Positions 3,154 through 64,000 of a stretch of 64,000 bases of DNA are shown piece after piece. Position 1 is the stretch's first letter. Every line of letters begins with the position of its first letter. The DNA is from Candidatus Magasanikbacteria bacterium RIFCSPHIGHO2_01_FULL_33_34 (lineage in GTDB: Bacteria; Patescibacteriota; Patescibacteriia; Magasanikbacterales; UBA922), in contig MFPS01000009.1 in assembly GCA_001782825.1 (NCBI GenBank), forward strand, positions 122,102-186,101. The letters are read 5' to 3'. Position numbers and translations under genes: made by a program. Below the pieces are notes generated by a model that searched no databases, was not told the origin of the DNA, and saw nothing but the letters and a program-made list of their open reading frames with translations.

Positions 3154-3243
3154 TTTATTACCATTGAAAAAACTATCGCAAAATGATATTCTATAATAAC
3201 TTATATAAAAAATATAGAATTAATTATAGTATAACAAAAGTTT

Positions 3244-3356
3244 GATAATTATCTTTTTTACGGATTTGGTTGTCACAACAGACAACCACCTCGGAGCCAC
3301 AGCGAGAATCCTGCCTGCCGGCAGGCAGGGAGTAAAAACAAATAATTGAAATTAAT
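3244..3356 (+). repeat. Nested-hairpin repeat element, copy 1 (carries an extra GC-rich perfect palindrome CCTGCCTGCCGGCAGGCAGG)
   Basis: Shares the core ACGGATTTGGTTG(t/c)CACAACAG(a/g)CAACCACCTCGGAGCCACAGCGAGAAT...GAGTAAAAACAAATAATT with copies at 19461, 22513 and 23930, flanked by long inverted repeats. Confidence 0.7.
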
Positions 3357-3405: not shown

Positions 3406-4353
3406 ATGAAAAAAAACATACTCCTATCTGGCTCACTCGCATACGACTATATAATGGACTTTCCAGATAGCTTCAAAAACCATATCCTTCCTGATCACCT
3501 ACATATATTAAATGTATGTTTTATGGTTGACAAATTAGAAAAAAACTATGGTGGTACAGCCGGTAATATTGCTTACAACATAAAATTGCTTGGCGGTGAA
3601 CCATTGATCTTATGTCCTCTAGGCAAAGATGGTGATGACTACAAAAAATACCTAAAAAATCTGAATATCAATACAAACTACATATCAGAAACAAAAGAAA
3701 AAATGACTAGCGCTGCCCATATCACCACTGACAAAGACAACAACCAAATCACTGCCTTTTACAATGGGGCTCTTGCTGAAGCTACCAAATTAAATATATC
3801 TGATATCAAAGATGAATTTGATATAGTCCTAATTTCCCCTACCCAAAAAGAAGCCATGATAAAACATGCGCACGAATGTTATGATCAAAAAATTAAATTT
3901 GTGTTTGATCCAGGTCAACAAATAACGGCCTTTGACCAGCAAGAAATGTTGATGATGCTCGGTATGGCAAATTTCCTTATTGCTAACGATTATGAAATCA
4001 AATTAATTGCCAATATAACCAATCTAACAGAACAAGATATTATAAAAAAAGTAGATATAATGATAAAAACTCTTGGCAGTGATGGCTCGGTTATTTATAC
4101 AAAAGATGAACTAATCAAGATAAATCCATGTCCAGCTAATTCAGTAGAAGATCCAACTGGCGCGGGAGACGCATATCGGGCAGGATTTTTTACAGCTCTA
4201 TCCCAAGACCGTGACTATGAAACTTGTGGACAGATTGCTAGTGTTTCAGCCACTTATGCTATTGAACAATACGGTACTCAAAATCATACTTATAACAAAA
4301 AAGGATTTGAGGAAAGATTTTTTAATACTTATAATAAAAAAATAATTTTGTAA
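3406..4353 (+). CDS. PfkB-family carbohydrate/nucleoside kinase (ribokinase/adenosine kinase-like)
   Basis: 315 aa. C-terminal PfkB signature DPTGAGDAYRAGF, plus GG-dipeptide and NxxE regions. Confidence 0.8.
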   Translation: MKKNILLSGSLAYDYIMDFPDSFKNHILPDHLHILNVCFMVDKLEKNYGGTAGNIAYNIKLLGGEPLILCPLGKDGDDYKKYLKNLNINTNYISETKEKMTSAAHITTDKDNNQITAFYNGALAEATKLNISDIKDEFDIVLISPTQKEAMIKHAHECYDQKIKFVFDPGQQITAFDQQEMLMMLGMANFLIANDYEIKLIANITNLTEQDIIKKVDIMIKTLGSDGSVIYTKDELIKINPCPANSVEDPTGAGDAYRAGFFTALSQDRDYETCGQIASVSATYAIEQYGTQNHTYNKKGFEERFFNTYNKKIIL

Positions 4354-19460: not shown

Positions 19461-19560
19461 ATTAGTTCTAATTATTTGTTTTTACGGATTTGGTTGCCAC
19501 AACAGGCAACCACCTCGGAGCCACAGCGAGAATGAGTAAAAACAAATAATTAGAACTAAT
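19461..19560 (+). repeat. Nested-hairpin repeat element, copy 2
   Basis: 25-bp perfect terminal inverted repeat ATTAGTTCTAATTATTTGTTTTTAC/GTAAAAACAAATAATTAGAACTAAT enclosing the conserved core. Confidence 0.7.
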
Positions 19561-22462: not shown

Positions 22463-22512
22463 AAAATAATCACTAAGGTATAAAAATTGAAATCATCATT
22501 TATAATTAAGTA

Positions 22513-22608
22513 TTAATTTCAATTATTTGTTTTTACGGATTTGATGCTCCAATAAGCATCACCCTCGGAGCCAAAGCGAGAATGAGTAAAAACAAATAAT
22601 TGAAATTA
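22513..22608 (+). repeat. Nested-hairpin repeat element, copy 3
   Basis: 24-bp perfect inverted repeat TTAATTTCAATTATTTGTTTTTAC/GTAAAAACAAATAATTGAAATTAA. Inner hairpin GATGCT-CCAATAA-GCATC shows compensatory changes relative to GGTTGCC-ACAACA-GGCAACC in copy 2. Confidence 0.7.
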
Positions 22609-22714
22609 ATACAATCTTGGTCAAAAATATAAACAACACTGTCTTATCTTACAATCAAGAAATTTGCCTAATTATAGGCACAAGTATAAACTACTATACA
22701 AAAGAAATGCAGGA

Positions 22715-23870: not shown

Positions 23871-23929
23871 TTAAAATTTACTTAATTAATAACTTGTTAG
23901 AAAAACTAATGTTATTTATAAAATAATAA

Positions 23930-24027
23930 AAGTCTGATAATTATATTTTTTACGGATTTGGTTGCTACAACAAACAACCACCTCGGAGTCCAAACGAGAA
24001 TGAGTAAAAAATATAATTATCAGACTT
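23930..24027 (+). repeat. Nested-hairpin repeat element, copy 4
   Basis: 24-bp perfect inverted repeat AAGTCTGATAATTATATTTTTTAC/GTAAAAAATATAATTATCAGACTT. The stem sequence differs from the other copies, but pairing is preserved. Confidence 0.7.
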
Positions 24028-24087
24028 TACTACCAAAAAACAATACAAATAACATTACAAAATCTTACAAATAACTTAATAAATATT

Positions 24088-29569: not shown

Positions 29570-29820
29570 ATTAAATAAAATTATATTATAACTAAAATAT
29601 ATTATACTCCATTAGAAATTCTTGGCAAGAACAAAAAAACAGACACCAACAGCATGATACCTGCAAATAAATAATAATAAATAGGGGCAAAACCTTCATT
29701 CTGTATTTCTGTTGTGCCCAAAACTGACCCAAACTTATCTTGTTTGTTACTCATATGTTTATGTTTATGTTTATTTTTGTATAAAAAAATCTTGAAGTCA
29801 ATGACAACAAGAAATTTTTT

Positions 29821-32559: not shown

Positions 32560-32560
32560 T

Positions 32561-33058
32561 CTAAAGTCCACGAGAACAGCTACTAACAGTCCCTCCAGAT
32601 GCTATACAAGCATCATACTCACTCGTTCCAATATCATAATCAAAATAAGCTGGTGGCTTATCCTGCGTAGCATTAAGTGCTACACTAGAAACTAAAGCCA
32701 AAATTGAATAAGCACTCATAATTACAAAAATACCGATTATACCCGTACGCAAAGTGCTCTTGCCTTTTTTTACTTTTTCCTCATCCCCTGCCGAAGACAT
32801 TATCAAATATCCAGCATAAACAGAATACGCAAAAAACATTATACCAATCATCCCTAACAAAAATTTTACCAACTGAGCCACGACAATCCTTGGATCAGTT
32901 GGAATAGTATCTCCTGCGCCAGACTTATTTGCAAAAGTTTTTAATTGTTGAGTAAAATCCTGAGCATTAACTTTTGCAAAATCAACAAAACTGTAGCCTA
33001 AAAATAAAATAGTTATCAATATATATAATGTTAAAAAATTTTTTTTATGTTTTTTCAT
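32561..33058 (-). CDS. VirB2/TrbC-like (T4SS-pilin-like) small secreted protein, paralog 1
   Basis: 165 aa. Signal peptide then the two-helix module ...VYAGYLIMSSAGDEEKVKKGKSTLRTGIIGIFVIMSAYSIL, followed by a short Cys-containing tail. Confidence 0.65.
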   Translation of the reverse strand: MKKHKKNFLTLYILITILFLGYSFVDFAKVNAQDFTQQLKTFANKSGAGDTIPTDPRIVVAQLVKFLLGMIGIMFFAYSVYAGYLIMSSAGDEEKVKKGKSTLRTGIIGIFVIMSAYSILALVSSVALNATQDKPPAYFDYDIGTSEYDACIASGGTVSSCSRGL

Positions 33059-33064
33059 ATAAAA

Positions 33065-33526
33065 TTATCCAGCAAAATCATCCCAACAACTTTCATCTTC
33101 CAGACAATCAAAGCGATCAGAACTTTGAGGTTCTTGAACAGCTTTCTGTAAACCTGAAGCAACAAAACTAGTGATTGCATAGGACAAAACTACTATAAAC
33201 AGTCCTATTACTGCACCACGCATTGTAGCTGATGCTTTTTCAATCTTTTCTGATCTACCACGAGCAATTATAAACCAATATGATGCCATCGCAATCAATA
33301 TAATAAAAATTGAGCCAATAAACCCTAAAAATATCTTTATAACTGAAGCTATGGTAACTTGAGGTGCGACCGCATCAGTATAACCTGCACTAGTCTTGCC
33401 AGCATTCAATTGGCCAAGTACTTTATCATTTAAACTTCCAGCTTGAACAACATTTGTAAATAATAAAGTACTTACAAATAAAATGACTATACTAAATATA
33501 AATTTATATACACTTTTTTGTTGCAT
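33065..33526 (-). CDS. VirB2/TrbC-like small secreted protein, paralog 2
   Basis: Start moved to MQQKSVYKF (ATG at 33526) to remove the overlap. Module ASYWFIIARGRSEKIEKASATMRGAVIGLFIVVLSYAIT, with a Cys-containing acidic tail. Confidence 0.6.
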   Translation of the reverse strand: MQQKSVYKFIFSIVILFVSTLLFTNVVQAGSLNDKVLGQLNAGKTSAGYTDAVAPQVTIASVIKIFLGFIGSIFIILIAMASYWFIIARGRSEKIEKASATMRGAVIGLFIVVLSYAITSFVASGLQKAVQEPQSSDRFDCLEDESCWDDFAG

Positions 33527-33530
33527 AATA

Positions 33531-33947
33531 TTAAAGCGATTCCTCAGATGGCGCAGTTTCAAGCAAAATCCTTGGAACAATAAAGAATGTAATACTGTAT
33601 GCACTAACAGCAATCACCAAACCAATCACTGAAGCGCGAATTATATTTTTTGCTTTATCAACTTGCGCTTCTTCACCACGGGCAGTCATCCAAAGAAAAC
33701 CAGCATAAACTGTCAAACTCATAAATATGATACCAGAAAATGACATCAATATTTTTACAACCGTACCCAATGTAGCTGCAAAAGTTGTTTCACTAGTATT
33801 TTCATCATATTGAGCAGCTTTGGCAGCATCACGTAAAAGTGAATTTGAATTAGATGAAGTTCCAAAACCAATATTTGGTTGAGCAAAAATAACTGTCGGT
33901 ACAAAAATTAAACTTAATAAAGTTATAAAAAATAATATTTTTTTCAT
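33531..33947 (-). CDS. VirB2/TrbC-like small secreted protein, paralog 3
   Basis: 138 aa. Signal peptide VIFAQ. Module VYAGFLWMTARGEEAQVDKAKNIIRASVIGLVIAVSAYSIT. Confidence 0.65.
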   Translation of the reverse strand: MKKILFFITLLSLIFVPTVIFAQPNIGFGTSSNSNSLLRDAAKAAQYDENTSETTFAATLGTVVKILMSFSGIIFMSLTVYAGFLWMTARGEEAQVDKAKNIIRASVIGLVIAVSAYSITFFIVPRILLETAPSEESL

Positions 33948-33956
33948 AAATATATG

Positions 33957-34340
33957 TTATTTATTTAAAGCCCCAGCTACCAGGAAAGTAATAGCATAAG
34001 CCGACAATACAAGCACAAGTCCAATAACAGTTCCTTTTATAATTGATTTTGCTTTGTTAACTTGATCTTCTTCACCCCTAGCTGTCATCCACAAAAATCC
34101 AGCATATACCATAAGCAACAAAAACATAAGACCAACCATAGACAATGCTACATTTATAACTCGTCCACTAATAGTCCCCAAACTATCAGATGCTTCAAAT
34201 CCAGCTTGACCACGAACAGTTTCCAAAGGACTATTTGTACCACCAAAAGCATTCTTAAGACCTTGGGCAGAAACAATTTGTGGTAAAACTACACTACTCA
34301 ATAAAACTATTATTATAATTATTTTTTTTATTGAAAACAT
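33957..34340 (-). CDS. VirB2/TrbC-like small secreted protein, paralog 4
   Basis: 127 aa. Signal peptide IVSAQ. Module VYAGFLWMTARGEEDQVNKAKSIIKGTVIGLVLVLSAYAIT. Confidence 0.65.
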   Translation of the reverse strand: MFSIKKIIIIIVLLSSVVLPQIVSAQGLKNAFGGTNSPLETVRGQAGFEASDSLGTISGRVINVALSMVGLMFLLLMVYAGFLWMTARGEEDQVNKAKSIIKGTVIGLVLVLSAYAITFLVAGALNK

Positions 34341-34348
34341 ATATATAA

Positions 34349-34717
34349 TTAATTTTCTAAAACGCCACCCAATAAAACTGTGATTGCATAAGATGCCAGC
34401 ACTACAATCAAACCTATTATAGCAGCAATTACAGTATTTTTTGCTTTCTTAATTTTATCCTCACTACCACTTGCCATCATCCAACTAAAACCTCCATAAA
34501 AAACCAAAATAAAAAATAATAAACCAACCGCAGTCAAACTTCCTTTTATCATACTACCAAATGTTCCACTAACACTCTCATTGGTAATACCTGCTTTCCC
34601 GGCTACTTTACCTAAATTACCACTAGCACTATTCAATGTGTATGCTGTTGCAAAATCTGCTTGAAAAAAAGAACACAAAATTATGATAAAACAAATATTT
34701 CTTAAAAATTTCTTCAT
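34349..34717 (-). CDS. VirB2/TrbC-like small secreted protein, paralog 5
   Basis: 122 aa. Module FYGGFSWMMASGSEDKIKKAKNTVIAAIIGLIVVLASYAIT. Confidence 0.65.
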   Translation of the reverse strand: MKKFLRNICFIIILCSFFQADFATAYTLNSASGNLGKVAGKAGITNESVSGTFGSMIKGSLTAVGLLFFILVFYGGFSWMMASGSEDKIKKAKNTVIAAIIGLIVVLASYAITVLLGGVLEN

Positions 34718-34733
34718 AAAAATTTACTAGCTA

Positions 34734-35228
34734 CTACGGACAAGCGCAAAACAAACCTCCAGAATTATTATCAACACAAGCTCTACCACCACATTCTGCT
34801 GATGAAGCTGATACTGTAGTACAAGGCTCAGTTGTTACACAACTACTATTTTGTGGTGTAGGCTCAGTAGTAGGTTCTCCACTAATAGCTCTAAATACAA
34901 AAGTAGTTATCGCATACGAGGCTACCACAATAATCAAACCAATCACAGCGGCCTTGATAGTACCCAATGCTTTATCAGTTTGCTGTTCATTACCACGAGC
35001 TATCATCCAAATAACACCACCATATATCATCAATAACAAAAATAATACACCAACCATAGTTAAGGCTGCCCCGACAACACTCCCAATAATATCTACTGGT
35101 GAGCTACCAGATACCGCCCCTTTCAAGCCTGAAACATCGGCAGTTTTGTCTAAACCATAATTTGCATAAACAGTTCCAGTACCAAATAAAGAAACAATGA
35201 TTGATAAAGTGATAATTATTTTTTTCAT
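34734..35228 (-). CDS. VirB2/TrbC-like small secreted protein, paralog 6, with Cys-rich C-terminal tail
   Basis: 164 aa. Module IYGGVIWMIARGNEQQTDKALGTIKAAVIGLIIVVASYAIT, then a tail with 6 Cys. Confidence 0.65.
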   Translation of the reverse strand: MKKIIITLSIIVSLFGTGTVYANYGLDKTADVSGLKGAVSGSSPVDIIGSVVGAALTMVGVLFLLLMIYGGVIWMIARGNEQQTDKALGTIKAAVIGLIIVVASYAITTFVFRAISGEPTTEPTPQNSSCVTTEPCTTVSASSAECGGRACVDNNSGGLFCACP

Positions 35229-35236
35229 AAATTTTA

Positions 35237-35857
35237 TTACTTAGGGATACAACAGACATTATCTGTCCCACCAGTACAATAACCAACCAAGGCTGTACCA
35301 GATACACAATCTGATGGATTACTACATTCAAATCTATCTCCACACTGGCTCGTACATAAACTATCATCATTTGAAATACACACATTTGCAGTTGGACTAC
35401 AAGATACAAGACTTGTACCAAAATCACATGGCTCAGTATCACTACAAGCAACCACCGTCAAACCATCTAGTCTATTTACACACTGTACAGAAGCACCAAT
35501 AGAACGAAAGATTAATCCTACAATCACATAAGAACCTAATACAATCACCAAACCAATTACTGCTGAAACGATTGTTTTGGTAGCTTTATCTGTTTGTTGT
35601 TCATTTCCTCTAGCCGTCATCCATATTATACCACCATATATAGTCAAAAGAAAGAATATAACACTTACAAAAGCAAGCGCTCCACCTATTACTTTTCCAA
35701 TCACTTCACTAGGAGTTCCAACATTCATTGATTTTGCAGAAGCTACCGACTTCAATCCATACTCACTATTTGATTGCGCATATATTGAATCTACAGATAC
35801 CAAAAAAAATCCGATGGCTGAAAAAAAAATAATTATCAAAATAATTAATTTTTTCAT
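35237..35857 (-). CDS. VirB2/TrbC-like small secreted protein, paralog 7, with long Cys-rich C-terminal extension
   Basis: 206 aa. Module IYGGIIWMTARGNEQQTDKATKTIVSAVIGLVIVLGSYVIV, then a roughly 90-aa Cys-rich domain. Confidence 0.65.
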   Translation of the reverse strand: MKKLIILIIIFFSAIGFFLVSVDSIYAQSNSEYGLKSVASAKSMNVGTPSEVIGKVIGGALAFVSVIFFLLTIYGGIIWMTARGNEQQTDKATKTIVSAVIGLVIVLGSYVIVGLIFRSIGASVQCVNRLDGLTVVACSDTEPCDFGTSLVSCSPTANVCISNDDSLCTSQCGDRFECSNPSDCVSGTALVGYCTGGTDNVCCIPK

Positions 35858-35858
35858 A

Positions 35859-36254
35859 TTAAAAATAATAAAAAAAGCCTCTGTGCGTCGCTTGAAATAA
35901 ACTCTTCAAAACAAAGCTAGTAATTGCATACGAACTCATTATTATTGCCAATCCGATAGAAGCTCCCCAAATAATTTTTTTGGCTTTATTTACTTTTTCA
36001 TCATTTCCCATAGATGTCATCCATAAAAAGCCAGCATACAACATCAAAACCATTGTTCCAATTCCAAGAAACCCTAAAACAGTCTGAATTATAGAACCAA
36101 TACTATATCTAATATCCCTATTTTCAAGTCCAGAATACCGAGCATAATTAACACCCAATAAATCATCTTCTGTAGCTACAACTGGACTAATAACAAAAAA
36201 TCCTAGTGATATAAAAAATAATAGGGAAAAAATAATGTATCTTTTTTTTTGCAT
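35859..36254 (-). CDS. VirB2/TrbC-like small secreted protein, paralog 8
   Basis: Start at MQKKRYII (36254). Module LYAGFLWMTSMGNDEKVNKAKKIIWGASIGLAIIMSSYAIT. Confidence 0.6.
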   Translation of the reverse strand: MQKKRYIIFSLLFFISLGFFVISPVVATEDDLLGVNYARYSGLENRDIRYSIGSIIQTVLGFLGIGTMVLMLYAGFLWMTSMGNDEKVNKAKKIIWGASIGLAIIMSSYAITSFVLKSLFQATHRGFFYYF

Positions 36255-36295
36255 ATAAAATATTTGTTTATACAAACAAATGTTTGCATATATAA

Positions 36296-36356
36296 ACAAA
36301 TAGGGCAGGGCTCCTAAAGCAAGGTTTTTCCCTTACATCAGGGGCCCTGCCCTTTA
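36296..36356 (-). terminator. GC-rich hairpin terminator after pilin-like paralog 9
   Basis: On the coding strand: GGGCAGGGCCCC...GGAGCCCTGCCC followed by a T-rich run. A strongly GC-rich stem in an AT-rich background. Confidence 0.6.
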
Positions 36357-36368
36357 ATAATTTGTTTC

Positions 36369-36764
36369 TTATGTTCCGTATCCAGTTGCTGTTCCAAGTT
36401 GTACAAGTACAAAACTTGAAATTGCGTAAGCACTCAAGATAACTGCAAGACCTACAACACCAGCGATGATGATTTTTCTAGCTTCACCAACTCCTTCATC
36501 GTTACCACCAGCTGTCATCCATTTAAAACCACCGTAAAGTACTATTACTAAAGCGATTATACCTAAAAGGCTGAGAGCTACATTGATAATAGAAGCAATT
36601 GTTGTTCTTAAATCTTGATTTCCAAGACGACTAACAGTACCGTAAGTCAAACCAAAATCAGCTTCAATAGAACCAGCTAATGCAGCTGGGGCCAAAGCCA
36701 AACTAAATACCATTGCAGCTAAAACTGAAAGTCCTACCTTGTATTTTAGAATTTTCGATAACAT
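36369..36764 (-). CDS. VirB2/TrbC-like small secreted protein, paralog 9 (candidate major subunit)
   Basis: 131 aa. Module LYGGFKWMTAGGNDEGVGEARKIIIAGVVGLAVILSAYAIS. The only gene here with a strong SD (GGAGGTGA, 7 nt before the ATG), plus a strong terminator. Confidence 0.7.
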   Translation of the reverse strand: MLSKILKYKVGLSVLAAMVFSLALAPAALAGSIEADFGLTYGTVSRLGNQDLRTTIASIINVALSLLGIIALVIVLYGGFKWMTAGGNDEGVGEARKIIIAGVVGLAVILSAYAISSFVLVQLGTATGYGT

Positions 36765-36891
36765 ATTCTCACCTCCCTTCCTATTATAGATTCATTTTTC
36801 ATAGTTAAATTATACTACAAATACTTTAATTAAACAACATTAGTGTGGATAATAATTTAACTATACAATCCTACTTAAAAAATTTTATTTT

Positions 36892-37281
36892 TTATGTGCC
36901 ATAACCAGTTGCGCTACCCAGACTAGTCAATACAAAACTAGAAATTGCATAAGCACTCAAAACTATTGCCAATCCAACTACACCAGCTATAATCGCTTTT
37001 CTACCTTGACCCGCTTGTTCATCATTACCACCAGACACCATCATCTGAAAACCACCATATAATACACCCACTAATGCCAATATACCTAAAAGTCCCAAAA
37101 TAACATTAATAATTGAAGCAATCGTTGAACGCACATCTTGATTCCCCAGACGACTAACAGTACCATAAGTCAAACCAAAATCTTCTTCAATAGAACCAGC
37201 TAACACAGTTGGTGTTAAAACTAAACTAAATATTACCAAAATTAAAGTCGCAAATATATTTAATTTTATTTTTTTATTCAT
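36892..37281 (-). CDS. VirB2/TrbC-like small secreted protein, paralog 10 (near-duplicate of paralog 9)
   Basis: 129 aa. Near-identical to paralog 9 over most of its length (AGSIEEDFGLTYGTVSRLGNQDVRSTIASIINV...). No SD. Confidence 0.65.
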   Translation of the reverse strand: MNKKIKLNIFATLILVIFSLVLTPTVLAGSIEEDFGLTYGTVSRLGNQDVRSTIASIINVILGLLGILALVGVLYGGFQMMVSGGNDEQAGQGRKAIIAGVVGLAIVLSAYAISSFVLTSLGSATGYGT

Positions 37282-37298
37282 AACATTTTTAATAAAAA

Positions 37299-37685
37299 TT
37301 ATTTGGCTATGACCCCAATTAATGCGCTTAAAATTGCATACGAAGAAAATATCACAAGAATACCTATGGTTGCATAAAGCATTGTCTTGGTACCTTTATC
37401 AACTCTCTGTTCATTTCCTGCAGAAGTGAGCCATAAAAATCCACCAATAACAAAAACTATCAACGTTACTGATCCCAAAATTCCTAAACTAGTATCTATT
37501 ATTTTCTTTATCAAAGGATTAATAACCGTACCATCTTCACCGGTAACCATCTCTCCCAAAGGATTTTGTAATCTTGATACACCACTACTATCTTCTTGGG
37601 CATTAACAGATACTGAACCATACACACCCAAAAACATAAAAGAAAAAATCATATAGCCTATTATATATTTTTTGAATATTTTCAT
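37299..37685 (-). CDS. VirB2/TrbC-like small secreted protein, paralog 11
   Basis: Start at MKIFKKYII (37685). Module VIGGFLWLTSAGNEQRVDKGTKTMLYATIGILVIFSSYAIL. Confidence 0.6.
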   Translation of the reverse strand: MKIFKKYIIGYMIFSFMFLGVYGSVSVNAQEDSSGVSRLQNPLGEMVTGEDGTVINPLIKKIIDTSLGILGSVTLIVFVIGGFLWLTSAGNEQRVDKGTKTMLYATIGILVIFSSYAILSALIGVIAK

Positions 37686-46676: not shown

Positions 46677-47534
46677 TTATTGAATAGACATTGTACCACC
46701 AAATACACCTACACTAGGTACACCATCTGCTGTAAACGATGCAATAGCATTGCCATCAACAGAAACATCTAGCATCTTTGTATTATATCTACCATCACGA
46801 TGTATACACAAAACAGTATCAAATTCATCCAATGAGTGAGTGTGTACCCTCAAAGTCTGAGGCTCACCATTTACATCAATAGTCCCAGTCCAATCAAACT
46901 CTGTTTCATCTGGATTAAAATAATCTGCCATTACAACAGTCTCATCAACATCTACTGTATCATCAAAATGAAGTTCTAAATCAGATGCACCTTGCAAACT
47001 CCACCCCAGTGCAAAATGAATATGTCTAGAATCTATTACTCTTGTATCTGTCAAATTTATTGTTCCCGCAAGACCTACTCGTCCAGAAGGCGATATTTTT
47101 ATTACTCTATTTTCATCATTGTCATCCACCAGTCTCAAAATAATATCACCTACATGGTCAGTTTTACCTGTAATCCGATCAAAAACGACTGACACGCCAA
47201 AAGTATTACCCCAAATATCTGTATACTCAACATTATCTGAAAAATAAAAAACTTCATTATTTGGATCATTTACATCCCAATCAAATCCCTTATATATGGC
47301 ATAATAAGTCGGCTCAAAACGAACCCCATATTGATCATTCTCCTTGGAAGAAAGAGTTCTTTCTGATGCTAAATGTAATGCAGAAATCACATCATTTACC
47401 GAAGTATTCAATTCTAATCTTTTGACAAACGATCTATAACTTACAAAACCACCAACTACCAAAATACTTGCTGTTGAAACAACCAATAAAATTTCTACAA
47501 GTGAAAAACCTCGTTTATTTAAACATTTAAGCAT
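46677..47534 (-). CDS. Type IV pilin/pseudopilin (prepilin-type N-terminus)
   Basis: True start is MLKCLNKRGFSLVEILLVVSTASILVVGG (ATG at 47534). The upstream 18 codons of the ORF-track call lie in the AT-rich palindromic leader. Confidence 0.75.
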   Translation of the reverse strand: MLKCLNKRGFSLVEILLVVSTASILVVGGFVSYRSFVKRLELNTSVNDVISALHLASERTLSSKENDQYGVRFEPTYYAIYKGFDWDVNDPNNEVFYFSDNVEYTDIWGNTFGVSVVFDRITGKTDHVGDIILRLVDDNDENRVIKISPSGRVGLAGTINLTDTRVIDSRHIHFALGWSLQGASDLELHFDDTVDVDETVVMADYFNPDETEFDWTGTIDVNGEPQTLRVHTHSLDEFDTVLCIHRDGRYNTKMLDVSVDGNAIASFTADGVPSVGVFGGTMSIQ

Positions 47535-47650
47535 ATAAACATATAAACATTCCATCGTTCCCAATAACAAATAAATTATTTGATGCAAATTTTATTAAAA
47601 ACAAAATATGTTTATATGTTTGTATGTTTACATGTTAAGTATTATATCAC
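47535..47650 (-). promoter_or_regulatory. Conserved palindromic AT-rich leader A (TATAAT, then CATACAAACATATAAACATAT, then AATGTTTATATGTTTATATG overlapping the start codon)
   Basis: Minus-strand reading: GATATAATACTTAACATGTAAACATACAAACATATAAACATATTTTGTTT ... GGAATGTTTATATGTTTATATGCTTAAATG. A near-identical arrangement is found at 62456-62592. Confidence 0.5.
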
Positions 47651-47691
47651 AAAAAACAAAAAACCGCCCTTTCAGACGATTTTTCTGTTTT

Positions 47692-60754: not shown

Positions 60755-62455
60755 TCAATGGCTACTATCCTTAAATCTCTGTCTCATTTCATTGATTTGG
60801 TCTTTTTTGAGTTCATTAAAAGTATGTTTGGTCCATGGTTTATTTTTCAAAATATTAGACATCCATGAACCACCCAACAAATGTGGCATCATAACATAAT
60901 TGGCGCCAGCTTTGTATACATCATCTATATGAACAGGGTGATACAAATTACCAATAATAACAGCTTTGCCACCATTTTGTCTCACCGTTCTTATCAATGT
61001 ATTTTGTGAATCAAACTCAGGTATAGTTGAAACAATCAATTTTGCCTTTTCAAGCGGAAGAATCTGTAAAAATTCAACATCAGCTGCATCACCAAAATAG
61101 GCTGGAATATTTCTACTTTTTAATCTACTAATAGCTTCAGGGTTAAAATCTACTACAGCATATTTAACATTCATTTCTTCTAGTGCTTCACACACTTTCC
61201 AACCAATTCTATGATAACCAAACACCCATACTTTATATGGCTCAGCATCCTTTATTTTATCTTTAAATTTGTCATTCCCAAATTTTTTCAAAAAAGGTAA
61301 TATTTTTTGATATAACTGATCATTGTATGTAATAAAATATGAAGAAATTACAATCGTAATAAGAGCTGTCATTGTAAGTATAGTTACTTCATTTCCATAC
61401 AAATAACCCAAATCTTTACCTTTGAAAACCAATATAAAACCAAATTCACTAACTTGCGCAGCGGTAATACCAGCAAAAAAAGCATTTCTACGAGTATACT
61501 TCATACTTCTCATCACTACATACAAGACCAAAGGATCAACAATTAATATAAAAATAGACAAAATAATTGCTGGCCAAAAAGAAGAATACACATCACCTAT
61601 CTGCATTTGACTTCCCAAGACAATAAAAAATAAAACTATAAAAAAATCTCGCAAAGGCCTTATACGACTAACAATTTGAGATTGATAAGGAGATGCGCCT
61701 AAAGAAATACCCGCTATAACCGCCCCAATTTCAATATTAAAACCTGCCCAATAAACCAAGCTAGCCACCCCAAAACACCATGCAATCGTAAAAATAAATA
61801 ATAATTCTCCAGAGTGAGCTACCTTTTCAATCAATATTGGCAAAATATATCGTGCTGCCAAAAAAACAATACCTATCAAAAGTATACCCTTGCTTATTGT
61901 CATCATAAATACTTCCCCCAATGTTCCCTCTCCACCAACAGTATTCAAGAAAATCATTATAATAACAGCTATAATATCTTGTACCAAAAGCAATCCAATC
62001 ACATACCTGCCATACATTGATTCACTATCTTTCTTCTCTGACAAAAATTTAGTGACAATAATCGTACTAGAAAATGTAATGGCAACCGCAACAAACATTG
62101 CTGAAACAGCCCCGTACCCCAATGCTTTCATTATCAAAAATCCTAAAGATGCTGCCAAAAGAAACTGAACTATACCACCGATAAAAACAACCTTGCCAAC
62201 TTTTTTGATATATTCAAAATTCAAACTCAAACCCACAATAAACAATAATAATACAATCCCAAAATGCGCAAAAGTTTCAAAAAATGCTTCACCACCATGA
62301 AGTAAGTTAAAAAATAATGGACCACCAACAATACCGGCTATAATATACGCAACTACAAGAGGCTGTTTGAACAAACGCAAAACAAGAGCAATCGTCACTG
62401 TAATTGCAAGCAATGTACTAATTTGAATAAAAATATTATCAACCACATTTAACAT
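60755..62455 (-). CDS. Cation:proton antiporter (CPA2/Kef-type) with C-terminal RCK/TrkA-N domain
   Basis: 566 aa. N-terminal 12-13 TM Na+/H+-exchanger domain. C-terminal Rossmann segment KVWVFGYHRIGWKVCEALEEMNVKYAVVD. Start is MLNVVDN at 62455. Confidence 0.75.
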   Translation of the reverse strand: MLNVVDNIFIQISTLLAITVTIALVLRLFKQPLVVAYIIAGIVGGPLFFNLLHGGEAFFETFAHFGIVLLLFIVGLSLNFEYIKKVGKVVFIGGIVQFLLAASLGFLIMKALGYGAVSAMFVAVAITFSSTIIVTKFLSEKKDSESMYGRYVIGLLLVQDIIAVIIMIFLNTVGGEGTLGEVFMMTISKGILLIGIVFLAARYILPILIEKVAHSGELLFIFTIAWCFGVASLVYWAGFNIEIGAVIAGISLGASPYQSQIVSRIRPLRDFFIVLFFIVLGSQMQIGDVYSSFWPAIILSIFILIVDPLVLYVVMRSMKYTRRNAFFAGITAAQVSEFGFILVFKGKDLGYLYGNEVTILTMTALITIVISSYFITYNDQLYQKILPFLKKFGNDKFKDKIKDAEPYKVWVFGYHRIGWKVCEALEEMNVKYAVVDFNPEAISRLKSRNIPAYFGDAADVEFLQILPLEKAKLIVSTIPEFDSQNTLIRTVRQNGGKAVIIGNLYHPVHIDDVYKAGANYVMMPHLLGGSWMSNILKNKPWTKHTFNELKKDQINEMRQRFKDSSH

Positions 62456-62592
62456 TTAAACATATAAGCATATAAACATTAAAACATAAAAATTGACTTA
62501 CTATCATCAAAAAACTTTCAAACAAAATATTTCAATTTGTTTAAATGCTTATATGTTTATATGTTTGTATGCTTATTATTATACCAAATTTT
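62456..62592 (-). promoter_or_regulatory. Conserved palindromic AT-rich leader B (same arrangement as leader A)
   Basis: Minus-strand reading: GGTATAATAATAAGCATACAAACATATAAACATATAAGCATTTAAACAAATTGAAATATTTTGTTT ... TTAATGTTTATATGCTTATATGTTTAAATG overlapping the ATG. Confidence 0.5.
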
Positions 62593-64000
62593 TTAACGTT
62601 TTACGAATGATATAATAGATACTAAAAACCGTTTAAGAAATCTTTTGATAAAAAAAGCTCGTGATTTTAAACTTATACCAATCAACGTTAATACCAAACC
62701 AATAATTATGGCTGTCAAATATTTTTCAGTATTATTTTTTTTAATTTCTTGCGAATTTAATAAATTGTCAGTTGATGTGGCCACATCAATTAATTCTATA
62801 TCCATATCAAAGCGTGGCATTAATTGTACGCCAGATGTACTATTGCCTAATATTCCTTTTATGATCATATTGTCACCCACATCAAACAAGCTTTTGTCTA
62901 TATTTGCATTTTTTTTAAAATAAACTTTAATTTCTTCACTCCCATCATCAAGATAAATATATGTGCTTTTCTTTTCAGTTATTTCACCACTTATTTGCAA
63001 ATAACTTCCTATATAATTTTCTGTAATTTCATTTATTTCAATTTTTTGTTCAACAAGCTCAGCTTTATCTAATACAACAATATCTTTTTTTGCCTTTATT
63101 TTAACCCTAGTTTCTCCATAAGCCATAGAAATCTCCCCTACTATTTCAACTTCATCACCCACTTCAAATTCAGGAAAATCCTTGCTATACATATAAACCT
63201 GAACGCCAGCAATATTGTCTGTAATATAAAAATACTGCGTACCAAAAATATTTGGCATCACACTTACAATTCCTTTTGTTTTTATTTGAGTGCCAACCTC
63301 AAGAGTCCTTATTTCAGACAAGCTAACATTTACTATTAATTTATAACCACTAGTATTAGATACTATTTTTACCAATGGTTTTGAAAAAGTATTTTTTACA
63401 CCCGGAGTAATCTGTGTTGTCCATTGCCATTCATCATCTTCATCACGAGAAAAACTTGCGCCCTCAACCACACTCACATAATCAATCTCATCAACAACAG
63501 TATCGTCCAACCATAACAAACGTGCTGAATCAATTGTATTATTTAATGCAATCTTTGTATCCCATTTACCAAATACCATATATTCACCGGCTTTAATAAA
63601 AGTATTATCAGGAATTTTGTAAGGTCTTGAACCACCTTCTTCATCATCCAACCTTAATCCTGTCAAATCAAAATCTTCATTTGTTGGATTATACAGCTCA
63701 ATCATTTCTGTTGAATCTGACCCAGCTGGATTTGGTAAAATTTCTGTAATTATTATATTTACATCTTCAATATTTCTTTGACTATTTTTATTTCCTATAT
63801 TCTCCAAATTATTTTTTATGGTTGTTGTATTTGTAATTACAGAATTATAAATTTTTGTAGATGTACTTAATGTATATTCTTCTTCATCTGATTCTATATA
63901 TATTATATTTTCAATACCCTTGGTAATTTCCATTGTAATAACAAAATCAATAGAATCCATATCAGTATCTTGACCATCATAAACTCTCGCAACTGCAAAA
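62593..64000 (-). CDS. Lamin-tail-domain (LTD) surface protein with OB-fold-like domain and C-terminal TM anchor. N-terminus runs off the window edge
   Basis: LTD signature IIITEILPNPAGSDSTEMIELYNPTNEDFDLTGLRLDDE. C-terminal TM TAIIIGLVLTLIGISL. The frame is open through position 64000. Confidence 0.6.
   Translation of the reverse strand, partial: FAVARVYDGQDTDMDSIDFVITMEITKGIENIIYIESDEEEYTLSTSTKIYNSVITNTTTIKNNLENIGNKNSQRNIEDVNIIITEILPNPAGSDSTEMIELYNPTNEDFDLTGLRLDDEEGGSRPYKIPDNTFIKAGEYMVFGKWDTKIALNNTIDSARLLWLDDTVVDEIDYVSVVEGASFSRDEDDEWQWTTQITPGVKNTFSKPLVKIVSNTSGYKLIVNVSLSEIRTLEVGTQIKTKGIVSVMPNIFGTQYFYITDNIAGVQVYMYSKDFPEFEVGDEVEIVGEISMAYGETRVKIKAKKDIVVLDKAELVEQKIEINEITENYIGSYLQISGEITEKKSTYIYLDDGSEEIKVYFKKNANIDKSLFDVGDNMIIKGILGNSTSGVQLMPRFDMDIELIDVATSTDNLLNSQEIKKNNTEKYLTAIIIGLVLTLIGISLKSRAFFIKRFLKRFLVSIISFVKR

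Follow-up and report, generated by a model that had tools for sequence, protein, structure and literature searches.

Two genes in a 64,000-nt stretch of DNA from Candidatus Magasanikbacteria bacterium RIFCSPHIGHO2_01_FULL_33_34 (contig MFPS01000009.1; the whole stretch is termed the window) are preceded by leader sequences built alike from short tandem repeats. One gene encodes a prepilin-like protein (leader A) and the other a CPA2-type cation:proton antiporter (leader B). The leaders are best read as two local copies of a dispersed repeat palindrome found solely in bacteria of the Candidate Phyla Radiation (CPR). This palindrome is apparently a widespread repeat family so far undescribed; a full-text literature search found no description of the motif or of such leaders or repeats in CPR. 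The element is generic and not gene-specific. Its anatomy, the existence of the family, the distribution in CPR and the turnover between relatives are established by the comparisons given here. In this genome, both leaders may damp or condition translation and cap the 5' end of the mRNA with a stem, a tentative reading that is given a rough probability of 0.4.

Leaders A and B are both on the minus strand and consist of the same parts in the same order (Table 1): an extended -10 box (TGnTATAAT), a gap of 5-6 nt, a 5' array (CATNYAAA)x4, a spacer, and an inverted 3' array (ATGYTTAW)x4-5 that holds the start codon. A preliminary description, made from the sequence alone, had proposed this ordered set of parts, a 5' block that is the reverse complement of the 3' block, and an overlap with both start codons. 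All of this is borne out: the complementary arms are 29 nt at 90% in leader A and 28 nt at 93% in leader B, and the start codons at 47534 and 62455 are inside the 3' arrays. An 11-mer, ATATTTTGTTT, which is common to both leaders and had been listed as a further leader part, is near chance level, with 3 matches vs 0.66 expected in the window. In leader A, six bases separate the -10 box from the first CAT, which is at about the predicted +1. The spacers (46-57 nt) of the two leaders fail to align.

The repeats also affect how these genes are annotated. The pilin protein is 100% identical to the public entry P0121 (Magasanikbacteria RIFCSPLOWO2_01_FULL), whose annotation puts the start at 47555, so that some residues are encoded by the repeat array; the pilin gene has the locus tag A3A89_00795. 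In orthologues of the CPA2 antiporter the start is two codons further on, where this gene has GTG 62449. Repeat turnover affects gene callers, as annotated N-termini such as MECLYVYMLKCLN... are repeat-encoded.

Could such sequences be expected by chance in AT-rich DNA? The window has a GC content of 32%. Tandem Repeats Finder (TRF) detects exactly four period-8 arrays in it, and these are the two arms of leaders A and B. The shared blocks CATACAAACATATAAACATAT and AATGTTTATATGYTTATATGYTTAAATG (21 and 28 nt) occur twice each in the window, solely in the leaders, where 0 occurrences are expected. A 13-mer core, with two or fewer mismatches allowed, has 25 matches vs 11.3 expected, a number reached in 0 of 100 shuffles. 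Of the 25, 15 belong to the four arrays, and outside them the number of matches is what chance would give.

The transcripts of both leaders are predicted to fold into long hairpins that sequester the start codon, as the preliminary description had suggested. Folding energies are -30.6 kcal/mol for leader A (z -5.4) and -36.6 kcal/mol for leader B (z -4.4). The predicted pairing probability of the start codon is 1.00 for the pilin gene and 0.98 for CPA2, which places them first and seventh among the 67 genes of the window. Ordinary leaders in the window are about 25-30 nt long, AU-rich and unstructured, and follow TGnTATAAT or TATAAT. A Shine-Dalgarno-like 4-mer at -20 to -4 is present in five of the 67 genes, and most starts follow plain AU-rich sequence. 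Rfam 15 at the gathering threshold returns only four tRNAs in the window and no match in the leaders; in permissive mode, the leaders match nothing beyond generic hairpin or miRNA families, all below threshold (the best at 21 bits vs a gathering score of 100). A search for intrinsic terminators or attenuators found none apart from that of rpsR, which is upstream of leader A, and the stems of the element are AU-rich and carry no U-tract.

A standard -35/-10 scan calls neither leader promoter, and there is no -35 box at either. The promoter assignment rests on the conserved TGnTATAAT, and the +1 positions were inferred from the -10 boxes. In orthologous pilin leaders (loci from other genomes carry L numbers), the -10 element of leader A appears as TGGTATAAT in L125, L126 and L127 and as TGATATAAT in L138. 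The leader B promoter appears as TTTGGTATAAT in L001 and L004 and as TTTGTTATAAT in L003. TGNTATAAT occurs 18 times in the window vs 8.4 expected. A second perfect extended -10 box, TGATATAAT, is present at 62608-62616 on the plus strand, 22 nt from the leader B promoter and pointing the opposite way; this box, a possible antisense promoter, is inside the LTD/OB-fold gene at its 3' end.

Table 1. Coordinates in the window of the two leaders, their genes and the terminator adjacent to leader A
Feature	Coordinates	Strand	Details
Leader A, extended -10 element TGATATAAT	47641..47649	-	Read from sequence
Leader A, 5' arm, four octamers CTTAACAT GTAAACAT ACAAACAT ATAAACAT	about 47639-47608	-	TRF period 8, 3.9 copies
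Leader A, spacer/loop, about 57 nt	47607-47551	-	Non-homologous to leader B spacer; weakly extends stem (z -1.66)
Leader A, 3' arm ATGTTTAT ATGTTTAT ATGCTTAA ATGTTTAA	47519..47550	-	Third unit gives in-frame prepilin ATG (47534-47532)
Prepilin-like gene, MLKCLNKRG/FSLVEILLVVS	46677..47534	-	Pfam N_methyl; first gene of four-gene minor-pilin operon
Leader B, extended -10 element TGGTATAAT	62578..62586	-	7 nt past stop codon of upstream LTD/OB-fold gene
Leader B, 5' arm AAGCATAC AAACATAT AAACATAT AAGCATTT AAACA	62538..62576	-	TRF period 8, 4.9 copies
Leader B, spacer/loop, about 50 nt	62488..62537	-	Stem-extension z -0.89
Leader B, 3' arm ATGTTTTA ATGTTTAT ATGCTTAT ATGTTTAA ATGTTAAA	62448..62487	-	ATG of last unit (62455) is first in-frame start
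CPA2-type cation:proton antiporter gene	60755..62455	-	Pfam Na_H_Exchanger and TrkA_N
rpsR (S18) intrinsic terminator	47658..47685	-	12-pair stem then TTTTTT; T-tract reaches into leader A promoter; upstream open reading frame is Ribosomal_S18 (Pfam)

The family was defined as (AAACATNT)n, a loop of 1-150 nt and (ANATGYTT)n, and 185,579 species genomes were scanned with ATGYTTAWATGYTTAWATG in both orientations; the counts that follow are those among the matches listed. The scan gives many random single matches in AT-rich genomes. It also gives at least about 50 CPR loci, which belong to Morani-, Nealson-, Kuenen-, Falkow- and Saccharibacteria and to unclassified Patescibacteria, and several CPR genomes contribute 2-5 loci each. 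Paired arrays have a preferred order, with the AAACAT-type array at the 5' side and the ATGYTT-type array at the 3' side in about 18 cases and the reverse order in one weak case. The same array pairs were recovered independently in a TRF census. Pairs in the preferred order are in CPR-titled or lineage-unlabelled loci, with the exception of L006, an unclassified metagenome-assembled genome. The 94 viral loci that match the same pattern contain single arrays, but just one doubtful pair. The hexamer core AAACAT/ATGTTT is constant across CPR lineages and the two linker bases vary. In all palindromic tandem-repeat pairs found, units of 7-8 nt predominate, and many different units are represented in these loci. 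In several copies the spacers extend the stem.

What genes carry the element? In other CPR lineages, those directly 3' of it are rplB, rplV, rplN, rplT, rpsN, rpsT, tuf, trpS, rpsR, leuS, pgk and ruvA; Pfam confirms the first ten and aligns the first profile position to about residue 1. Between the 3' array and the start codon downstream of it there are 0-10 nt, and the array is often in an 8-10-nt register with that codon. In nine cases the 5' array is found 0-9 nt past a -10-like box (leaders A and B, L125, L127, L124 upstream of tuf, L093, L044, L054 and L116). Some copies occupy intercistronic spacers within ribosomal-protein operons, i.e. between rplW and rplB and before rplV, rplN and rpsN. 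Unpaired single arrays also adjoin starts in either orientation, and single arrays are found near tRNA genes, one upstream of a tRNA-Ser gene and one just past a tRNA-Gly gene. Octamer-repeat palindromes of other sequence (AATGMTTA, AATGAGTG and TCATGGTT) are present in Bacteroidota (L050 3620-3869, L055 3270-3427, L057 2413-2500 and L068 951-1072), and the arm order of the AATGMTTA family is opposite to that of the CPR element.

How stable is the element at orthologous genes of close relatives? The synteny of the antiporter gene is conserved. Its leader is a palindrome of AAATTCG heptamers in L001, of the 14-mer AGTTCATAGCCAAT in L004 and of AGTTATAA octamers in L133, and each of these tandem-repeat palindromes extends from the promoter to the ATG. 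The CPA2 leaders of L130 and L132 are GC-rich hairpins, those of L135 and L003 are short and plain, and in L129 and L131 (position 1501) the gene is effectively leaderless (TATAAT-gtctac-ATG). The leaderless form shows how freely the clade reshapes this gene's 5' untranslated region (UTR). The pilin leader of L125 (65% pilin identity) reads GGTATAAT-acgcg-(CATNTAAA)x4-TTGTA-(ATGYTTNN)x4-start. That of L127 (51% identity) consists of GGTATAAT-actata-(CATATAAA)x4, a 130-nt spacer and (ATGTTTTA)x4, followed by 45 nt to the ATG. The octamer element was not found in the pilin leaders of L126, L138 and L137. Deep conservation at both genes was rejected, as the CPA2 leaders are hypervariable and the pilin leader has kept the element in only three of six relatives. 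At the pilin operon the element persists in three species, with pilins that are 51-65% identical. Four assemblies (the window and three others) have a 100% identical leader A, which shows no variation in repeat number among them, although these possibly represent one aquifer population and minority length variants are invisible in assemblies.

Repeats were also seen elsewhere in these relatives. The heptamer repeat that forms the CPA2 leader of L001 (AAATTCG/AAATCCG, x4) is also found inside the YchF coding sequence at L001 12748-12778, about 2.8 kb downstream of the CPA2 leader and apparently in frame. GC-rich hairpins of the type CCTCCCCTnnnAGGGGAGGTTAGGTGGGGTC recur between genes in several Magasanikbacteria relatives (L001 14030-14130; L127 2375-2480) and upstream of CPA2 in L130, L132 and L135; they look like repetitive extragenic palindromic (REP) sequences and are distinct from the AT-rich repeat palindromes.

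The preliminary description took the common leader as the mark of a dedicated regulon, with a single specific factor or an RNA thermosensor controlling both the pilin operon and the antiporter. Within the window the element is indeed present only at these two genes, with near-identical blocks of 21 and 28 nt, and both start codons are predicted to be buried; yet the view covers 64 kb of the genome, and one public contig with the pilin gene has 504 kb. Elsewhere in CPR the same palindrome precedes housekeeping genes, i.e. those for ribosomal proteins, EF-Tu and aminoacyl-tRNA synthetases, pgk, ruvA and tRNA genes. Sister genomes carry the orthologous gene pair with no element in common: the L004/L125 population has the octamer element at the pilin gene and an unrelated 14-nt repeat at CPA2, and in the L003/L126 genome both leaders are without the element and both promoters are kept. 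A thermosensor is unlikely, since the stems, with 28-29 bp and energies of -30 kcal/mol or stronger, are far more stable than those of known thermometers. A dedicated regulon is therefore very improbable. It is rather improbable that the arrays represent an expression signal that is conserved throughout CPR and recognized by one common trans-acting factor; this might be a protein that binds RNA or coats DNA, or the ribosome. A possible variant is an 'AUG-ladder', a device for ribosome loading or coupling that would replace Shine-Dalgarno pairing in these reduced genomes, which are poor in such sequences, with the upstream complementary array as a built-in anti-sequence switch. A shared signal, if true, would add a new layer to global gene control in bacteria that comprise a large share of bacterial diversity.

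The reading preferred here is that of a cis-acting mRNA structure. Each copy in this genome appears to span the whole 5' UTR, from about the predicted +1 to the start codon. The arrays would be transcribed, and the mRNA would form an AU-rich stem of about 28-29 bp at its 5' end, with the AUG hidden inside it. Because the organism is almost entirely without Shine-Dalgarno sequences, accessibility of the start site should dominate initiation. The most likely effect would then be post-transcriptional and in cis, with translation of both genes damped or made conditional. The paired 5' end may also protect the mRNA against 5'-end-dependent decay, and the long double-stranded stem is a candidate substrate for RNase III. 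CPA2 orthologues rebuild the same architecture from unrelated sequences, which suggests that the fold, not one binding sequence, is what matters. An extent bounded exactly by the predicted +1 and the start codon would favour a transcribed RNA structure acting in cis, as would the predicted tendency of spacers to extend the stem, and the retention of the pilin-leader element in three species may be counted on the same side. Precedents for such hairpins exist in Haemophilus influenzae hmw1A (PMC12721329) and in cyanobacteria (PMC2670836), and they too favour this reading.

A number of observations weigh against an mRNA structure. Among 19 copies, the sense hairpin is the more stable in 9 and the antisense hairpin in 10. 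Mismatches between the arms on the sense strand are more commonly C·A than G·U, and C is present at unit position 4 in 39% of 3'-arm units vs a complementary G in 15% of 5'-arm units; this bias and this imbalance indicate that pairing in the mRNA has left no compensatory signature. Sense-strand G·U compensation was accordingly dropped as a sign of RNA-level constraint, there being no sense advantage and an opposite mismatch bias. Several sense hairpins are weak, e.g. the L044 rplT copy at -12 kcal/mol. The single arrays near starts and tRNA genes imply that a hairpin is not obligatory, and the strong preference for units of 7-8 nt has no obvious RNA rationale. A translation element that puts 3-9 out-of-frame AUGs ahead of highly expressed genes would be a paradox. 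The +1 positions, on which the predicted extent depends, come only from -10 boxes.

Might the arrays be read as DNA instead? A repeat-coating protein, e.g. one of the ribbon-helix-helix (RHH) class such as the omega repressor, MetJ or the ParG/ParR type, could bind the 8-bp units as an operator array. An array at +1 to +30 would block promoter escape, and the second array would co-operate or act as a roadblock. The absence of a sense-strand G·U signature fits this proposal, and so do the constancy of the hexamer core across CPR while linker bases vary and the dominance of 7-8-bp units in palindromic tandem-repeat pairs, which agrees with RHH operator spacing. MetJ metboxes are spaced at 8 bp and omega heptads at 7 bp, and ParG tetramer boxes have 4-bp spacers. 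Omega tolerates direct and converging heptads and not diverging ones, and among the matches listed the arrangement is converging by about 18 to 1. In nine cases the 5' array is right at the promoter, starting 5-6 nt past the -10 box in leaders A and B. On the other hand, many copies are intercistronic in ribosomal-protein operons, where a promoter is not expected, the distance between arrays is unconstrained (1-150 nt), and orthologous leaders use entirely different units, each of which would need a separate protein. Pfam calls on neighbouring genes, the only search made, gave no candidate protein. A DNA operator is less probable than an mRNA structure, yet a serious rival to it.

The elements may also be non-adaptive or selfish repeat DNA that arises by slippage, by quasi-palindrome template switching or by copying of the kind associated with REP sequences and miniature inverted-repeat transposable elements (MITEs), is tolerated in UTRs and spacers, and affects expression only incidentally. 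Patchiness at orthologous sites among close relatives, with rapid replacement, is what this would produce, and many unrelated unit families, those of Bacteroidota included, share the design. The AAATTCG repeat copy within the YchF coding sequence of L001, the single arrays in either orientation and also by tRNA genes, and the symmetry of the element on both strands point the same way. Yet distant CPR lineages have the same hexamer core and arm order, the pilin-leader element is kept in three species at 51-65% protein identity, and the ends are precisely placed at about +1 and at the start codon. Pairs are essentially absent from the 94 pattern-matching viral loci, and the identity of leader A in four assemblies implies that it is not hypermutable on that scale. 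The hallmarks of a MITE, i.e. a target-site duplication, a shared core and a clean empty site, also fail. A non-adaptive origin, slightly more probable than a DNA operator, is likewise a serious rival, and the cis-acting mRNA structure is retained as the tentative choice.

The window contains other repeated sequences. The preliminary description had regarded two sites as fragments related to the leaders, at 36255-36300 and 29756-29775, and neither is recovered by the 13-mer search. The first is a period-20 repeat (36258-36302) with its own 12-nt inverted repeat. It belongs to a segment in which a GC-rich hairpin (36302-36353) is followed by the period-20 AT repeat, with the inverted repeat TATTTGTTTATA...TATAAACAAATA, directly upstream of the ATG at 36254; the whole (36258-36353) resembles the octamer element only loosely. 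The second is a period-6 repeat, (AAACAT)x3 at 29754-29778, which abuts the ATG of a 50-amino-acid (aa) putative membrane open reading frame (29602-29754, minus strand). It contains the hexamer core of the element without the linker bases, and its orientation to the gene is opposite to that of the start-proximal arrays.

An element of about 100 nt is present four times on the plus strand (3240-3345, 19461-19560, 22510-22612 and 23929-24028). It has an invariant core, TTTTTACGGATTTGGTTGCCACAACAGGCAACCACCTCGGAGCCACAGCGAGAATGAGTAAAAA, surrounded by a variable 30-nt outer stem that is 93-94% complementary in each copy, and copies are found upstream of plus-strand genes starting at 3406, 22766 and 24088. 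It matches no Rfam family and has the look of a structured leader, or of an RNA similar to riboswitches, that is so far undescribed. A run of paralogues, seven or more small genes of about 130-200 aa with a common 85-nt block (family D1), is found at 32560-37450 on the minus strand, upstream of the type IV pilus region; these appear to encode tandemly duplicated pilin-like or membrane proteins.

Hardly any CPR bacteria (Patescibacteria) are in culture, and very little is known of how their gene expression is controlled. The element recurs ahead of genes for ribosomal proteins, EF-Tu and tRNA synthetases and also ahead of pilus and ion-transport genes, and its function could be nil. If it is functional, it would be among the first candidate generic cis-regulatory signals for CPR and would bear on initiation without Shine-Dalgarno sequences. 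If it is non-adaptive, it would represent an unusual mode of intergenic turnover, by palindromes of 7-8-nt tandem repeats.

Several known systems invite comparison. The Haemophilus influenzae hmw1A gene has a 5'-UTR hairpin that contains a heptamer repeat, (ATCTTTC)n, and that is transcribed, acts in cis on expression and is processed by RNase III (PMC12721329). Both there and in the leader of the pilin gene, which likewise concerns a surface structure, a short tandem repeat separates promoter and start codon, and both have a long, stable, repeat-built hairpin, here in silico only. The two differ in that the left arm alone of the hmw1A hairpin is the repeat and the right arm is G-rich, whereas both arms of the CPR leaders are inverted arrays of one 8-nt unit. 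In addition, the hmw1A repeat number is phase-variable and leader A is without length variation in four assemblies, and the CPR element is dispersed over many genes and lineages and overlaps the start codon. Period-8 arrays between a -10 box and a start codon also recall phase-variable simple-sequence-repeat contingency loci. The short tandemly repeated repetitive (STRR) sequences of cyanobacteria are mentioned in PMC2670836 as 7-nt tandem repeats of intergenic and promoter regions that can form hairpins, e.g. between hupS and hupL, and roles in transcript stability and translational coupling are among those proposed there. To the extent that this source describes them, STRR sequences are similar to the present repeats in having several unit families per lineage and in forming hairpins in intergenic regions, and differ in phylum, in units and in period (7 vs 8 here).

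Families such as REP/BIME, ERIC, Correia/NEMIS and BOX (review PMC3184786) are likewise multi-copy, lineage-specific extragenic palindromes that are co-transcribed and patchy at orthologous sites, and they can alter mRNA stability or processing. They have a defined length and consensus, whereas the CPR element is without a fixed length, a shared core or a target-site duplication. Unlike in REP, ERIC, Correia and BOX, the arms of the CPR element are tandem octamers, with one unit common to phylum-level CPR lineages. REP sequences are GC-rich palindromes of 20-40 bp with GTAG/CGTC tags, are high in copy number and are associated with a RAYT transposase, and Correia elements and MITEs have terminal inverted repeats and target-site duplications. 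An assignment to REP/BIME was rejected, the element being AT-rich, octamer-built and without a GTAG/CGTC tag. MITE-like terminal inverted repeats are present in the form of the 28-29-nt arms (90-93% complementary). Insertion of a MITE was nevertheless rejected, as there is no flanking direct repeat and no shared core (the spacers of leaders A and B cannot be aligned, and loops range from 1 to 150 nt), and those relatives in which the element is missing (L126, L003) have another short leader in its place, which is not what precise excision leaves.

RHH operator and centromere arrays (omega, MetJ, ParG/ParR) similarly consist of non-palindromic 7-8-bp units, direct and converging, at promoters; they differ in that many CPR copies are intercistronic or near tRNA genes and that CPR arrays stand at highly variable distances from each other. 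RNA thermometers such as ROSE and fourU share with the leaders a hairpin that occludes the translation start. Known thermometers have short, weak stems with characteristic motifs, and these marginally stable stems melt in the physiological range. The stems of the element are 28-29 bp at -30 to -37 kcal/mol and match no Rfam thermometer. The PUF element UGUANAUA, the Cheo/LexA box, parS, Fur hexamers and the epsilon enhancer were considered and dropped because spacing or arm order does not fit. The general kind to which the leaders belong is thus already known, either as a repeat-built 5'-UTR hairpin or as a dispersed palindromic intergenic repeat. What distinguishes the CPR element is a set of features: both arms are inverted octamer arrays, the order of the arms is fixed, the element is anchored at +1 and at the start codon, and its distribution is CPR-wide.

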